A stretch of 8,206 nt of DNA from a virus (Monodnaviria; Loebvirae; Hofneiviricota; Faserviricetes; Tubulavirales; Inoviridae), in the IMG/VR virus record IMGVR_UViG_2541047896_000001, positions 1-8,206 of that record, one strand, 5' to 3'. The position numbers and the translations under genes are program-made. Every line of letters begins with the position of its first letter. The first letter of the stretch is position 1. Positions 1,337 through 6,125 of the stretch are shown here, one piece after another. Below the pieces are notes generated by a model. That model searched no databases, was not told where the DNA came from, and saw only the letters and a list, made by a program, of their open reading frames with translations.

Positions 1337-3220
1337 TCACGCAGTCAGAATGATACGCAGCGAAATAATGCCCCAGATAAGCAGGAATACCGCTTTCAGA
1401 AGTGGCCTGATTTTTTCCAGAAGCTCGCAGTGAGAATCAATGGAATATTTATTGTCCCAGAGTTCGAACGACCATACCGGACACTGAACATCCTTCGATG
1501 AAATAATCAGATTTTTAATGTCCGGCATTAATTCCGTAATTGGCTTTAGAATTTCCTCACCTGTAGGCGGTTTTTCAAGTTCCGGCGCTTTAATGCCGGG
1601 GTCTTCGCCTAAATCAACAGAAGTATCGGTATCTGTGCCTGTACCAGGGTGTACACCTGTATCCGTTCCCGCACCGGGTCTGGCATTAACCCACGACTGA
1701 GGAACGACAACCGGACTATAAAGCAAGCCCTTATCAAGTTTTACGCCAACAGCATTAGCCGCAGCCGTCAGTTCAGCCGCCGTAAAAGGTTTATCAAGCG
1801 GTATCCCCTGATATCCTTCCTGAACAACAGTCTGACCTGCAAGGCCATTAATAAGATTAACCAGCGCAGCCGGGTTTAACTGTTCTTCCGGCTTGAAATC
1901 TATATTATCAATAACCTCGCCATTAATTACCTGAGGTAAAGTTGATGTATCAAATTCTGTATTAAAAAATATCTGGTCTTTAACATCCTGAACATCATTC
2001 GTCGTTTTATACACGGCCTTCTCAGGGTGGCAAATACTTTTCCACTGCGTTTTGGGATTATCAGCCGTACTGCCCGGCGCAGGTACTTTCTCGCTTTTAC
2101 ATAAATCCCATGAATTTTCAAGCGTAACCGTTGTTGTCGCAACAGATAAAACAACAGTTACAATCGATGAATATCCACCAAAATAAGGATTCGGCTTTTC
2201 ATACTGAAAGTCTTTAACGGAAACCGAATAAACCTTAAAATTTCTTGGCATCCTGATATGTAAGTTATTGTCGTCAGAAGCCTCATGATAAGTCACATTG
2301 GAATGAGAATAACCATTAATCGACTTATAAAGCGCAATCATTACCGGATTATCACTGACAAGTACAGCATCGCCCTTTGCATCCCTGATATCAGTCGAAT
2401 AAGGATATTTAGTACCCTTTACTGACACACGATATACATCATTCGGAAATGGCTGGCTTATCGGCGGTGGTGCATCAATATTGTAATAGGTTGGCGCAAT
2501 CTGAACAGGTTTAACCTGCTGATTATAAGGGTTTATCGAATCCTGAATATTCTTCGCAGAAAAGCCAGTAGCATCAGAGGGCAAATAAACAGCAACAGGG
2601 CTTTTAGGTGAAGGTGCAACAGAAGAAGTAACAGTAGCGCCATTGGACAAATTAAGTAAATAAGTTCCATCATCCTGTTTTATTCCACTTGTAATATATT
2701 CAACAGCTTTTGCGCCCTGCTTTAAAGCAAGGTCAGCAACGGAAATAACACCCGCAGCCTGCCCCAACAATCCCCATGTTGTCTGTCCGGCAGCCATCAT
2801 ATTACTGCCAAAACTTGAAATACCCGTAGATATCGAATCGTCAATTGTATGCTTCGCAAGGCCATAAGCAGCCGCGAAAACTGACGTTCCGGTGCAAAGC
2901 TGAGGGTTACCCACTTTCTCGCCACACATGCGGATTGAATCAAAAACGTCAGGACGTTCGCGTATAACCTCCGCAGCGACAGCGATACCCGCGCCCATAC
3001 CGAGAGAACTGGCACCCGTTGCGAACACACGCCCCGCAGATTGAGAAACAACCTGAGCTTCACGGGTTTCAACCATTTGCTGAATTACACGTCCAAATCC
3101 GTCTGCTGTTACTGCATCAGCATGTACACCGGATGAAACCAGTAAGGACAATATAGTAATACCTAACTTTCCAGACCCTGAATGACCGCCCAGGCGCATA
3201 AAAGCCCCCATAAAAAACAC
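1337..3220 (-). CDS. Adsorption / minor coat protein pIII-like (receptor-binding, virion-tip protein)
   Basis: Long ORF, 627 aa from GTG at 3220-3218. In-frame ATGs at 3211-3209 and 3199-3197, the latter preceded by a GGGGG run, are more likely starts. N-terminal signal-peptide-like stretch KLGITILSLLVSSGVHA then DAVTADG; Gly/Thr/Asp-rich linker GAGTDTGVHPGTGTDTDTSVDLGEDPG; C-terminal hydrophobic anchor LLKAVFLLIWGIISLRIILTA. Lies between pVIII and pVI as gene III does. Confidence 0.7.
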   Translation of the reverse strand: MFFMGAFMRLGGHSGSGKLGITILSLLVSSGVHADAVTADGFGRVIQQMVETREAQVVSQSAGRVFATGASSLGMGAGIAVAAEVIRERPDVFDSIRMCGEKVGNPQLCTGTSVFAAAYGLAKHTIDDSISTGISSFGSNMMAAGQTTWGLLGQAAGVISVADLALKQGAKAVEYITSGIKQDDGTYLLNLSNGATVTSSVAPSPKSPVAVYLPSDATGFSAKNIQDSINPYNQQVKPVQIAPTYYNIDAPPPISQPFPNDVYRVSVKGTKYPYSTDIRDAKGDAVLVSDNPVMIALYKSINGYSHSNVTYHEASDDNNLHIRMPRNFKVYSVSVKDFQYEKPNPYFGGYSSIVTVVLSVATTTVTLENSWDLCKSEKVPAPGSTADNPKTQWKSICHPEKAVYKTTNDVQDVKDQIFFNTEFDTSTLPQVINGEVIDNIDFKPEEQLNPAALVNLINGLAGQTVVQEGYQGIPLDKPFTAAELTAAANAVGVKLDKGLLYSPVVVPQSWVNARPGAGTDTGVHPGTGTDTDTSVDLGEDPGIKAPELEKPPTGEEILKPITELMPDIKNLIISSKDVQCPVWSFELWDNKYSIDSHCELLEKIRPLLKAVFLLIWGIISLRIILTA

Positions 3221-3243: not shown

Positions 3244-3273
3244 CATAAATATAAAGGGGCTGTTACGCCCCTT
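3244..3273 (-). terminator. Rho-independent terminator/attenuator downstream of the major coat gene
   Basis: On the minus strand directly after the pVIII stop: 7-bp stem AAGGGGC / GCCCCTT (3267-3273 pairing with 3254-3260), 6-nt loop, followed by TATATTTAT (3253-3244). Established knowledge: Ff phages carry a terminator after gene VIII that sets the pVIII:pIII ratio. Confidence 0.55.
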
Positions 3274-3544: not shown

Positions 3545-3814
3545 TTATGCATTTCTTACGTGTTTAAGAATTTCACCTATTCCCTTTGCAAAGAGCCACA
3601 GGAAAAAGGTTGTCGTAAAAGCCAGCCCCCAGAATTGCGCCGCGACTGAATAATCAATATCGGGAACAGGCTTATCCTGAGAAACTACCGAAGACTGTAA
3701 TTTAACAACTTCTGACTTCGGTAATTTCAAAGTGACTTCATCGCATCCGTCAGGGCTGCCAAAGCTCATATTCGGATTGCAATATTTTGTCCTGATGATT
3801 ACCTCATCTGACAT
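3545..3814 (-). CDS. Small membrane-anchored protein of unknown function (gene VII/IX position)
   Basis: 89-aa ORF, ATG at 3814-3812 with AAGG-containing upstream sequence, TAA at 3547-3545. Soluble N-terminal part with two Cys (YCNPNMSFGSPDGCDE) and a C-terminal hydrophobic helix FWGLAFTTTFFLWLFAKGIG. Function inferred only from position. Confidence 0.5.
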   Translation of the reverse strand: MSDEVIIRTKYCNPNMSFGSPDGCDEVTLKLPKSEVVKLQSSVVSQDKPVPDIDYSVAAQFWGLAFTTTFFLWLFAKGIGEILKHVRNA

Positions 3815-3831
3815 AAAAGTATCGCCTTAAC

Positions 3832-4122
3832 TCATTCTAATAATTCAAGCAGCATATCAACGTTATACCCTTTAGACTGCTCACCTGTCTGCTTATCAGT
3901 GTATGGGAAACTCCGTTCATAACCAGTAATACGGCAATGTACGTCTGTAATTTCATCACCAATACGGCCTAATGGTTTCTTTGATTTAATACGAATGACA
4001 GGCGGAAAGCTATAAGCATCAGCCGCAGGAGAAACAATTGTTGTATAATAAAAACCGCCACTATTATTAAAGCGTTTAATCTTTCCGGTAACAGTAGTTT
4101 CTAAATTAAGTAAATTACTCAT
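3832..4122 (-). CDS. Candidate ssDNA-binding protein (pV / RstB position)
   Basis: 96-aa ORF, ATG at 4122-4120 preceded by AAGGTG on the minus strand, TGA at 3834-3832. Small, predicted beta-rich protein immediately downstream of rep, where inoviruses encode the ssDNA-binding protein. No motif-level proof of family. Confidence 0.45.
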   Translation of the reverse strand: MSNLLNLETTVTGKIKRFNNSGGFYYTTIVSPAADAYSFPPVIRIKSKKPLGRIGDEITDVHCRITGYERSFPYTDKQTGEQSKGYNVDMLLELLE

Positions 4123-4138
4123 AATAACACCTTATATT

Positions 4139-5254
4139 CTATGCAACTCGTAAATGAGACGGTTTTACATACCACGATGGAATAACACAATCAGAAACTT
4201 TAATCTCTCGCGTTTGCTTGACAACAACAGGAGAGAATTTCGAAACATTACATTTTTGCGCAATGTCAATACCAATCTTGCGGAGTCTTGCTCGATGAAT
4301 ACGCACTTGATTTTTACTTAAATCAAAAATATGACCATGAAACCATTGGATCGCATACATAGCTGTAGTATTAGCTGCCCGTGTAGTTTCAACTATTCCA
4401 CGGGTAATAAGATGTTCACTAATAGTTTCAAAATCCATAGCATTCACCGATAACTTTTCATCAAGAGCCAGAAAATCAGAATGTAACTTATTTAAGACAG
4501 AATAATCAGATAACCCCCAAAAACCTAGAGAGTGCTTTTGAATAAAACGAGACTTCAATTTTTGTTCAAATCTGACTATTCCATTTTCCTTACAATAATC
4601 AATCACACTAACAATATAATTAAACTCTTTTGACTGCTCAGAGAATTTATTTTTTATTTTTAATAAACTATGTAACTCAATCTCATGTGACTTATTATAT
4701 ACAGTCGGATAAATAAGATTAACATTCCCTTTTTTAGACAACCAGTCAACAGATTTACCGTTTGAATGCAACCGTGGGACACTATTCCTATAGGGTTGAG
4801 TCGAAAGCCCTGAAATATAATCATCCTCATTCCCTTTGCCAACAGATTTATTAGATGTTATATGAAGCTCTTTAATTAACGCCCCATCAGTTACCATATG
4901 GGCTTTTTCGGTTTCTTTAGACTGACCGGGCATTAATCGAGTGCATTTTGTGAAAACAGGCAATTTAAGATCAAGAAGGATCTTATTGAAAACCATAACG
5001 CAAGCATCAACAGTAGGTAAGCCAAATAAATTATCAAGCCGCCCCCACCGCGAGGGGTTGCCCGTCATTTTTAGAACAGATCCACGGATAGAGATAGAAA
5101 CGACATCACAGAAAGATCCCCGGTGCTGAAAAGTTGGCTGAGAAAGCGCACTAGCCTCACCACTTTCAAGATGAATACGCTGGTAAGCAACATCCGAGAG
5201 AATAGGAAGTTGAAAGCCGAAATCCTGTTCAATACTTAACCAGTCGAAGAACAT
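4139..5254 (-). CDS. Rolling-circle replication initiation protein (pII / RstA-like)
   Basis: 371-aa ORF, ATG at 5254-5252, TAG at 4141-4139. First gene of the minus-strand operon behind a near-consensus sigma70 promoter. The N-terminal region (VVSISIRGSVLKMTGNPSRWGRLDNLFG) resembles, from memory, the conserved N-terminal block of Ff pII (CVEIKASPAKVLQGHNVFG). Size and position fit RstA/pII. Confidence 0.75.
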   Translation of the reverse strand: MFFDWLSIEQDFGFQLPILSDVAYQRIHLESGEASALSQPTFQHRGSFCDVVSISIRGSVLKMTGNPSRWGRLDNLFGLPTVDACVMVFNKILLDLKLPVFTKCTRLMPGQSKETEKAHMVTDGALIKELHITSNKSVGKGNEDDYISGLSTQPYRNSVPRLHSNGKSVDWLSKKGNVNLIYPTVYNKSHEIELHSLLKIKNKFSEQSKEFNYIVSVIDYCKENGIVRFEQKLKSRFIQKHSLGFWGLSDYSVLNKLHSDFLALDEKLSVNAMDFETISEHLITRGIVETTRAANTTAMYAIQWFHGHIFDLSKNQVRIHRARLRKIGIDIAQKCNVSKFSPVVVKQTREIKVSDCVIPSWYVKPSHLRVA

Positions 5255-5377
5255 AGCGCCCTTTCTTAGATTCTCAGAAATTATTTCATGGTGCTTTTAT
5301 AAGACCTGAGAAACTAAGTGTCAACATTTCTAAGAATTTAGAGATATGATGCAAAGCTAGCAGAATGAGGAAAGAGC
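5255..5377. promoter_or_regulatory. Divergent promoter/operator region between rep (minus) and the small plus-strand ORF
   Basis: Minus-strand promoter for rep: -35 TTGACA (complement of 5319-5324), 17-nt spacer, -10 TATAAA (complement of 5296-5301). Repeated near-palindromic TTCT-N-AGAA motifs: ttcttagat 5264-5272, ttctcagaa 5271-5279, ctgagaa 5306-5312, ttctaagaa 5329-5337. These overlap or flank the promoter and are candidate operators. A possible plus-strand -10 TATGAT lies at 5345-5350. Confidence 0.55.
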
Positions 5378-5566
5378 ATGCCTACAAAGCACATAAACGA
5401 TGTTCAATGGAGAAAAATAGAGAAAGAAACCGTTAGAGCGGTATCAACCCTAGCTGTTCCAGTTAAAGATACCAAAATGCTCGAATGGATAATCGCCAAA
5501 GGGTTAGAGACGATCACAGAAGACGACTACCGCAAGTTCCTGAAGACAGAAAGCAAAAAAAAATAA
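5378..5566 (+). CDS. Small hypothetical protein, candidate phage regulator (RstR-like position)
   Basis: 62-aa ORF, ATG at 5378 with GAGG 7 nt upstream, transcribed divergently from rep as rstR is in CTXphi. Lys-rich C-terminus. No recognisable helix-turn-helix, so the regulator call rests on position only. Confidence 0.5.
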   Translation: MPTKHINDVQWRKIEKETVRAVSTLAVPVKDTKMLEWIIAKGLETITEDDYRKFLKTESKKK

Positions 5567-5758
5567 GCGAGCAGGGAAAAAATACGGGAAACCGTACTAA
5601 AGTTCGGGTGTCACAGAACCCCGAACCGCTTCGCGGCGAAAAAACGAACAACAGCAGAGCTTGCGAAATCGGAATTAAGATAAGCTGGACGTCAAACGAT
5701 TAAACAAAAATACGCCATTATGCAAAGATCAAATGACACACTCTAAAAGGTATAGGTA

Positions 5759-6025
5759 ATGAACAAAGACCAGATAATACAAGTACTTAATGAAACAGAG
5801 AATGACAGCCCCGTAGCAAGAGCAGAATTAGCAAGATTCCTCGTAAAAACAATCTACAATTTTGTAAAAATGGAGAGGCCAGAAGGTGAAGGTCTGGACG
5901 GACGTGATGGCCCAGAAAGGCGCAGCATGGGAAAAATTGTAGATGCGGCAGAAAACCACTACTTTAACATGATAAAAGAAAGCCATGAAAAACAGGGAAT
6001 TGGAAGAAAAAACCCTGAGGAATGA
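5759..6025 (+). CDS. Hypothetical protein, unknown function
   Basis: 88-aa ORF, ATG at 5759 with AAAGG 8 nt upstream, TGA at 6023-6025, immediately followed by the dif-like site and a hairpin with T-run. Charged, Glu/Lys/Arg-rich; no motif recognised. Confidence 0.45.
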   Translation: MNKDQIIQVLNETENDSPVARAELARFLVKTIYNFVKMERPEGEGLDGRDGPERRSMGKIVDAAENHYFNMIKESHEKQGIGRKNPEE

Positions 6026-6031
6026 CGCCCT

Positions 6032-6125
6032 AATGCGCATAATGACGTTATGCTAAAGAGGCCGCTGCGGGATTCTATTTTCGCAGCGGCCTTTTCAACA
6101 TAACGAGTCAAACATTATGCGCACC
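6032..6125. other. Xer-type attachment structure: two inverted dif-like sites separated by a GC-rich hairpin (attP-like / prophage-host junction)
   Basis: Site A, plus strand: 6032-6042 aatgcgcataa (9/11 to the dif XerC arm GGTGCGCATAA), 5-nt spacer, 6048-6058 ttatgctaaag (9/11 to the XerD arm TTATGTTAAAT). Site B, minus strand: complement of 6115-6125 = ggtgcgcataa (11/11), 11-nt spacer, complement of 6093-6103 = ttatgttgaaa (9/11). Perfect 11-bp inverted repeat 6034-6044 / 6113-6123 and 7-bp inverted repeat 6046-6052 / 6099-6105. The dif consensus is recalled from memory. Confidence 0.65.
6060..6095 (+). terminator. Rho-independent terminator-like hairpin at the apex of the attachment structure
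   Basis: 10-bp GC-rich stem GGCCGCTGCG (6060-6069) / CGCAGCGGCC (6082-6091), 12-nt loop, then TTTT (6092-6095), 35 nt downstream of the 88-aa ORF stop. It may serve both as a terminator and as the tip of the folded attP hairpin. Confidence 0.6.

Follow-up and report, generated by a model that had tools for sequence, protein, structure and literature searches.

The 8,206-nucleotide (nt) stretch of viral DNA analysed here (hereafter the window; IMG/VR record IMGVR_UViG_2541047896_000001) carries a filamentous prophage, and its open reading frame (ORF) at positions 1337–3220 can be assigned with good confidence to the pIII type, that is, to the minor coat protein for adsorption and capping of a dif-integrated filamentous prophage of Enterobacterales. 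All coordinates are positions in the window, and the phage genes lie on the minus strand. An earlier note on this DNA had called the product pIII, and the call was supported by gene order, by a C-terminus like that of CoaA, by a hairpin bracketed by cysteines and followed by a membrane helix, and by a chimeric sister protein (P0020) with an N2-like middle. Within this type, the protein is of the CoaA-like C-terminal class and falls outside the Ff g3p family as strictly defined, because its similarity to the C domains of Ff, If1 and IKe pIII is non-significant and fold searches were empty. It is very likely a previously unnamed long variant of the inovirus tip protein; as the same note had stated, its 620 amino acids (aa) far exceed the 424 aa of Ff (M13) pIII, and the length is also unusual among 128 representatives sharing the C-terminal module (median length=465 aa; 2.3% with at least 600 aa).

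The slot occupied by the ORF, in the order pVIII-like gene, target, DUF2523 gene and Zot gene, was found in every related locus examined, including L001, L002, L003, L010 and L011, and also in contigs from Enterobacter and from metagenomes whose replication module differs; the prophage contains no other pIII candidate. An exhaustive profile search matched 675 representative clusters, nearly all over positions ∼430–619 of the protein only, and the profile of the last 92 residues matched CoaA of the Pseudomonas Pf-type phage 36-2 (E=1 × 10−15). Further matches, obtained by tblastn, were to proteins annotated as ‘attachment protein' and ‘CoaA', functions assigned by annotation. Homology to the annotated pIII/CoaA protein of a described phage was thus found in the C-terminal module, and the last 85 residues belong to a module common to hundreds of inovirus proteins, Pf-type CoaA among them. 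A C-terminal anchor preceded by a hairpin bracketed by cysteines, a trait of pIII, was recognized by Kyte–Doolittle hydropathy and in the AlphaFold2 (AF2) model; aa 600–618 form the sole segment over the usual transmembrane threshold (Kyte–Doolittle 2.29) and are predicted to be helical, in agreement with the anchor proposed in the earlier note.

Furthermore, P0020, a protein of 519 aa from metagenome and read-archive assemblies, shares the N-terminal ∼200 residues of the target (E=7 × 10−65) and its C-terminal ∼200 residues (domains D3–D4 of the map given below; E=6 × 10−95), and the middle of P0020 is 44% identical to N2 of M13 pIII (E=3 × 10−14), including the CAFHSGFNE motif. At full length the target matches the profile of phrog_3942, to which no function is assigned (E=6 × 10−196 over aa 18–620). 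As an alternative, the product could be missing from the virion and serve the prophage as an exported or membrane-bound accessory: an adhesin, a toxin or a superinfection-exclusion factor, for instance. Accessory genes are indeed found in inovirus prophages, no curated family names this protein and the fold search gave no pIII; however, we consider such a role very unlikely in view of the invariant position in the structural operon of a prophage with no second candidate, the C-terminus shared with CoaA, and the N2-type cassette position revealed by P0020.

A number of results weigh against the pIII assignment or against what is built on it. The protein has no match in Pfam, in NCBIfam or, by sequence, in PDB, where neither the single protein nor the family profile, used as query, matched anything above chance level; Foldseek comparison of the full-length AF2 model with PDB and BFVD yielded nothing significant, and when the homologue search was repeated from the family alignment, it recovered the 19 proteins already found and no others. 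Alignment to the C domains of Ff, If1 and IKe pIII is collinear, with both cysteines aligned, and non-significant (HMMER 0.6–5 bits; hhalign probability 10%, P=0.003), and BLASTP against M13 pIII was likewise not significant. No N1-like (TolA-binding) domain was detected in Pfam or by profile comparison with any N1, and no Gly-rich linkers of the GGGS type were found. The AF2 model, with a mean predicted local distance difference test score (pLDDT) of 64.9 at full length, is unreliable for aa 58–113 and 232–315, and a run on D1 only reached 46.8, so that the domain functions considered below are read from position only. Formation of virions by this prophage, and the place of the protein in them, are presumed here.

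As had been pointed out before, three candidate starts (GTG 3220, ATG 3211 and ATG 3199) lie in frame within 24 nt, giving precursors of 627, 624 and 620 aa, respectively. Translation most likely starts at ATG 3199, which is preferred as the sole start with a Shine–Dalgarno-like run; the predicted free energy of the Shine–Dalgarno duplex is −8.4 kcal/mol at this codon, and −1.5 and +0.6 kcal/mol at the other two. The GGGG of this run is retained in L002 and L003, two diverged loci; the Met equivalent to ATG 3199 is also the called start of most homologues, and the start given by the Prokaryotic Genome Annotation Pipeline in E. coli NCTC9040 and A28 is the equivalent codon. The DNA upstream of the start is 94% conserved even where the protein of the locus is just 51–56% identical, and since this stretch is conserved as DNA, its conservation does not decide among the starts. 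Initiation at ATG 3211 or GTG 3220, with a precursor of 624 or 627 aa, is in our judgement unlikely: the two codons share the frame and are preserved in diverged loci, and the homologue P0019 is called from the equivalent of ATG 3211, but neither codon has Shine–Dalgarno pairing, the ATG 3211 codon is overlapped by the G-run that serves ATG 3199, both differences that L003 shows across the four codons separating the ATGs are non-synonymous, and starting upstream would put a hydrophobic FFMGAF stretch before the basic n-region.

The N-terminus carries a predicted cleavable signal peptide, a trait of pIII/g3p-type proteins that the earlier note had also seen, according to a rule-based reading of the n, h and c regions and the −3/−1 rule. 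The segment MRLGGHSGSGK (basic at R2 and K11) is followed by the hydrophobic LGITILSLLVSSGV and then by V-H-A, with the cut before D; a small residue at −3/−1 is kept in 11 of 11 aligned homologues, though the residues themselves differ. The three starts share the hydrophobic core and the cleavage site, and the predicted mature protein, beginning with DAVTADG, is therefore identical from all of them, so that the choice of start carries little biological weight and N-terminal sequencing of the virion protein could not separate the starts. Compared with a 95%-identical E. coli copy, the ratio of non-synonymous to synonymous substitution rates (dN/dS) was 0.07 for the gene, a sign of purifying selection. 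Positive selection on D2 was rejected at the scale of this copy (dN/dS=0.07 for D2). The signal-peptide codons (3119–3199), compared with those of L011 (E. coli A28), showed 6.5 non-synonymous and 1.5 synonymous differences, against a dN/dS of 0.07 in the remainder of the gene; numbers this small may reflect chance or a separate recombination tract.

The domain map (Table 1) was drawn from the way in which relatives share parts of the protein (149 representatives) and from the AF2 model. The resulting picture is of an ectodomain that appears modular, with D1 (aa 28–213), a swappable D2 (aa 214–430), a conserved helical D3 (aa 431–505) and a short flexible linker. D1a is common to P0020 and P0022, whose middle cassettes differ, and D1b is common to ∼15 of the 149 representatives and to Dulem virus 52. 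D2 is common to just 2–3 of the 149, and used by itself as a query it matched nothing beyond the family. Conservation of D3 extends as far as that of the anchor, yet in the PEC148 prophage described below D3 diverges together with the ectodomain; it may belong to the tip as a C1-like part or act as a co-receptor domain.

The linker is a 30-aa stretch rich in G, T, D and P that contains GTDTGVHPGTGTDTDT at aa 511–526 (1622–1669); it varies with indels among homologues and is far shorter than the Gly linkers of Ff. The G/T/D-rich linker of the earlier note is therefore present, and its description as repetitive was generous, no tandem repeat having been found in the DNA at this place. According to the AF2 model, D4 consists of a helix (aa 547–562), a beta-hairpin (aa 576–587) and a membrane helix (aa 598–619; 1343–1408), and the hairpin is flanked by the invariant Cys573 and Cys591 (1427–1483). 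All six cysteines of the protein are invariant and fall into three within-domain pairs, a pattern compatible with export of the protein and a single disulfide in each domain.

Table 1. Features of the prophage and of its pIII-type gene, with positions in the window; amino-acid numbers count from ATG 3199.
Feature	Positions	Strand	Basis or remarks
Zot/pI protein	1–1035	−	ORF list and profile matches
DUF2523 protein	1039–1326	−	Matches PHROG ‘minor head protein' families; pVI-like by position
ORF under study, pIII-type	1337–3220	−	Open frame, 627 codons from GTG 3220
Coding sequence from the preferred start ATG 3199	1337–3199	−	620 aa; stop codon 1337–1339
Upstream alternative starts GTG 3220 and ATG 3211	3200–3220	−	Probably untranslated leader
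Shine–Dalgarno-like GGGGG	3205–3209	−	5 nt upstream of ATG 3199
Predicted Sec signal peptide, aa 1–27	3119–3199	−	Hydrophobicity and −3/−1 rule; cleavage after VHA
D1a, aa 28–131	2807–3118	−	Gly/Ala-rich, predicted helical; invariant Cys92/Cys102; AF2 pLDDT <50 in both runs
D1b, aa 132–213	2561–2806	−	Small beta domain; TW(G/A)...DG...PS..PV..Y motif; pLDDT 74–93 in full-length model
D2, aa 214–430	1910–2560	−	Variable middle cassette; beta-rich second half; invariant Cys367/Cys390
D3, aa 431–505	1685–1909	−	Helical; pLDDT 78–96; covered by 104–130 of 149 representatives
Linker, aa 506–535	1595–1684	−	Gly/Thr/Asp/Pro-rich low complexity; pLDDT <50
D4, aa 536–620	1340–1594	−	C-terminal assembly/anchor module; present in 147 of 149 representatives
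pVIII-like structural protein, 82 aa	3285–3533	−	
89-aa ORF	3545–3814	−	phrog_3679, function unannotated
Single-stranded DNA (ssDNA)-binding protein	3832–4122	−	
G2P-type replication protein (pII)	4139–5254	−	

The prophage of E. coli PEC148 lies at the same locus as the window prophage, and the proteins of the two are nearly identical in pII (99.7%), the ssDNA-binding protein (99.0%), the 89-aa ORF (98.9%), the pVI-like protein (98.9%) and pI (96.5%), with 84% identity in the pVIII-like protein. Within pIII, the last 85 aa are 94% identical and aa 1–535 only 40–63%, depending on the domain. Nucleotide similarity in the pIII gene is limited to its last 253 nt, which places the breakpoint at the 3′ end of the linker and, in turn, suggests that the ectodomain (aa 1–535) has been exchanged as a block between phages. 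Such block exchange is the behaviour expected of a host-range determinant, and since aa 1–535 are the sole strongly diverged block between otherwise near-identical prophages, it lends indirect support to the host-range role claimed in the earlier note.

Within the ectodomain, the primary receptor is most likely bound by D2, a candidate favoured because proteins whose middles are unrelated have D1 in common and because the D2 position of P0020 is taken by an N2-type domain. The earlier note had placed receptor binding in the N-terminal domains, and here the evidence points elsewhere: the ∼210 N-terminal aa are common to proteins with different middles, and the swappable cassette comprises aa ∼214–430. 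The binding of a pilus and a periplasmic co-receptor, which the note had ascribed to the N-terminal domains, gained no support. A point against this choice is that the PEC148 ectodomain has diverged as a whole, not in D2 alone, and the comparison therefore does not single out D2. It is less probable that receptor specificity resides in D1 and that D2 serves as a spacer or a co-receptor domain. In Ff both N-terminal domains bind, D1 has diverged as well (48–64% identity between the window protein and that of PEC148), and D1b is a well-predicted small beta domain, all of which would suit this arrangement; what argues for D2 instead is that P0020 and P0022 share D1 and differ completely in their middles, and that the Ff N2-like domain at the D2 position of P0020 is of a known pilus-binding type.

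A direct similarity between D2 and an N2 domain was also considered. The family profile aligns aa 249–362 to N2 of If1 (121–239; E=7 × 10−5), with 0 of 2,000 shuffles reaching the score, but hhalign gave only P=0.055 and a probability of 1%, and a score of 9.9 bits would be lost among chance matches if a whole database were searched. A tblastn search with D2 found nothing and no link through P0100 was obtained; the similarity is a lead and not a finding.

If the export, capping and host-binding steps established for Ff pIII are carried over, the protein would be exported and would then wait in the inner membrane, to which its C-terminal helix (the last ∼22 residues) would tether it. Virion closure and release would fall to around five copies acting with the DUF2523 (pVI-like) product of the adjacent gene, and during infection the exposed ectodomain (aa 28–535) would bind the host, with D2 as the putative primary-receptor binder and the exchanged block of aa 1–535 setting the host range. 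A bolder scheme, which we put forward as a speculation with more chance of failing than of holding, is that of a natural plug-and-play pIII scaffold, in which D1 would act as a co-receptor/penetration module replacing Ff N1, D3–D4 would hold the protein in the virion and unrelated primary-receptor cassettes, the Ff N2-like one of P0020 among them, would be placed in between. In this scheme D1 would differ from N1 in kind, with predicted Gly/Ala-rich helices and a small beta domain. If true, this would constitute a second, undescribed entry route for coliphage-like inoviruses in at least six Enterobacterales genera.

The exact protein corresponds to a record named ‘MULTISPECIES: hypothetical protein [Enterobacterales]', and the 90% cluster comprises 353 members from E. 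coli, Citrobacter, Enterobacter, Klebsiella, Salmonella and Serratia. Among complete E. coli genomes the gene was found in 6 of 5,426, always at two or more places per genome. Intact copies are carried by, for example, E. coli G5 and MS20655. This scarcity, and a copy in E. coli NCTC9040 that is annotated as two coding sequences, might be taken to mean that a defective prophage carries the gene as a decaying remnant; we regard this as extremely improbable, given that the ORF is intact and of the same length as its homologues, that the dN/dS value is as low as reported above, that the cluster extends across six genera and that all core genes are present. In NCTC9040 (L001; 7337–9199) the prophage stands in tandem, and the gene copy shown in full, the one annotated as two coding sequences, is probably interrupted. 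Two copies of the gene were also seen on a record labelled as a plasmid (NZ_CP173491.1; E. coli 98219, 272-kb plasmid record). Identity of the prophage with CUS-1/Ypfphi or UPphi was considered and is unlikely, in view of the 6 genomes in 5,426 and the lack of an IKe-like pIII.

The element is a dif-integrated inovirus prophage, as judged from its set of phage genes, the hipBA and autotransporter neighbours and a dif-like site at the junction. The E. coli copies of the prophage adjoin hipBA and the ECSE_1600 autotransporter gene and are frequently in tandem, and a GspD/pIV-type secretin gene follows the phage gene set in near-identical E. coli copies and in other relatives. The dif-like site (6093–6125, minus strand) consists of GGTGCGCATAA, an 11-nt spacer and TTATGTTGAAA, and was matched in 0 of 200 shuffles; the spacer is presumably longer than that of the host dif site. 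The match to other prophage copies stops at ∼6126, which marks 6093–6125 as the junction of prophage and chromosome. Beyond it lies a large ORF of the ECSE_1600 autotransporter family (6311–8206, minus strand), a host gene outside the phage whose frame seems to extend beyond the end of the window (8206).

Between the pVIII-like gene and the pIII-type gene, a consensus scan found a terminator-like hairpin (3254–3273, minus strand) with a GGGGC/GCCCC core within a 7-pair stem, followed by a T-rich run. Its stem is invariant in L002 and L003 and its loop varies, and IKe has an annotated stem-loop at the equivalent position. The 89-aa ORF at 3545–3814 stands alone where Ff, IKe and If1 carry two genes of ∼32 aa (VII and IX), and its length is kept in every related locus examined. 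The region at ∼3828–6300, comprising pII, sometimes the ssDNA-binding gene, and the adjoining region, recurs at ∼90% identity in many dif-region prophages of E. coli from which this structural module is missing, a sharing of replication modules that echoes that of genes II and V between UPphi and Ypfphi (PMC7307601). The sole nucleotide match of the window to any deposited phage is at 5578–5641, which is 87% identical to the major intergenic region of If1 (L006; 5046–5112), with a 38-nt identical core. The hairpin flanking this 64-nt element shows compensatory changes (TACGGGAAACCGTA versus CGTGGGAAACCACG), and the element may be an origin or a packaging element. A search of the window against Rfam gave no match.

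In the database look-ups, every copy of the protein was named ‘hypothetical protein', and a proper name would help to annotate the dif-integrated inovirus prophages of E. coli, Salmonella, Klebsiella, Enterobacter, Citrobacter and Serratia. That six genera carry a near-identical protein suggests that they have a receptor in common, the identification of which would explain how the prophage spreads. Furthermore, shared end modules, swappable middles and a clean breakpoint at the linker provide a natural template for retargeting filamentous phages, an approach exemplified with M13 (PMC12477597). The interest of the protein lies in this modular build and in the chimeric sister with its Ff N2-like domain; the current view of filamentous phages is not overturned.

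Among known systems, the same lifestyle is seen in the UPphi901/IKe-type inoviruses of Enterobacterales, which are dif-integrated, occur in tandem copies and in several genera, as does the window prophage, and have gene III as their most variable gene (Shapiro and Putonti 2020; PMC7307601). The g3p of UPphi was described as IKe-like, varying mainly in the number of GGGES repeats (PMC7307601), whereas the window protein shows neither similarity to IKe nor such repeats, and its structural module is therefore of a different lineage. With Ff pIII the window protein shares the place of its gene (downstream of the major coat gene and a terminator-like hairpin, with genes VI and I following), the signal peptide, the C-terminal membrane anchor and a Cys pair in each ectodomain domain, and it is linked to Ff through the N2-like domain of P0020. 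It differs in having no detectable homology to Ff N1 or N2, no GGGS-type linkers and no significant similarity to the C domain, and its N-terminal domain is Gly/Ala-rich and predicted to be helical where Ff has the small N1. In the cryo-electron microscopy structure of f1, the C domain of pIII forms a hairpin between Cys354 and Cys371 that is followed by the M helix (PMC10175506), and the modelled hairpin between Cys573 and Cys591 with its predicted membrane helix would have the same layout. The I-pilus-specific coliphage If1, whose pIII has N1, N2 and C domains, carries a Cys pair after the N2-aligned stretch at the same relative place and shares the 64-nt intergenic element with the window phage. 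The Pf-type proteins (annotated as CoaA in phage 36-2 and as ‘coat protein' in PMBT54) are ∼440 aa long and have unrelated ectodomains, without counterparts of D1, D2 and D3; their last ∼50 residues, however, are clearly homologous to those of the window protein, the common pattern being CP...F/I-DSHC...hydrophobic helix...LSA, and coaA lies between coaB and a gp6-like gene that is followed by Zot, in the same order as in the window.

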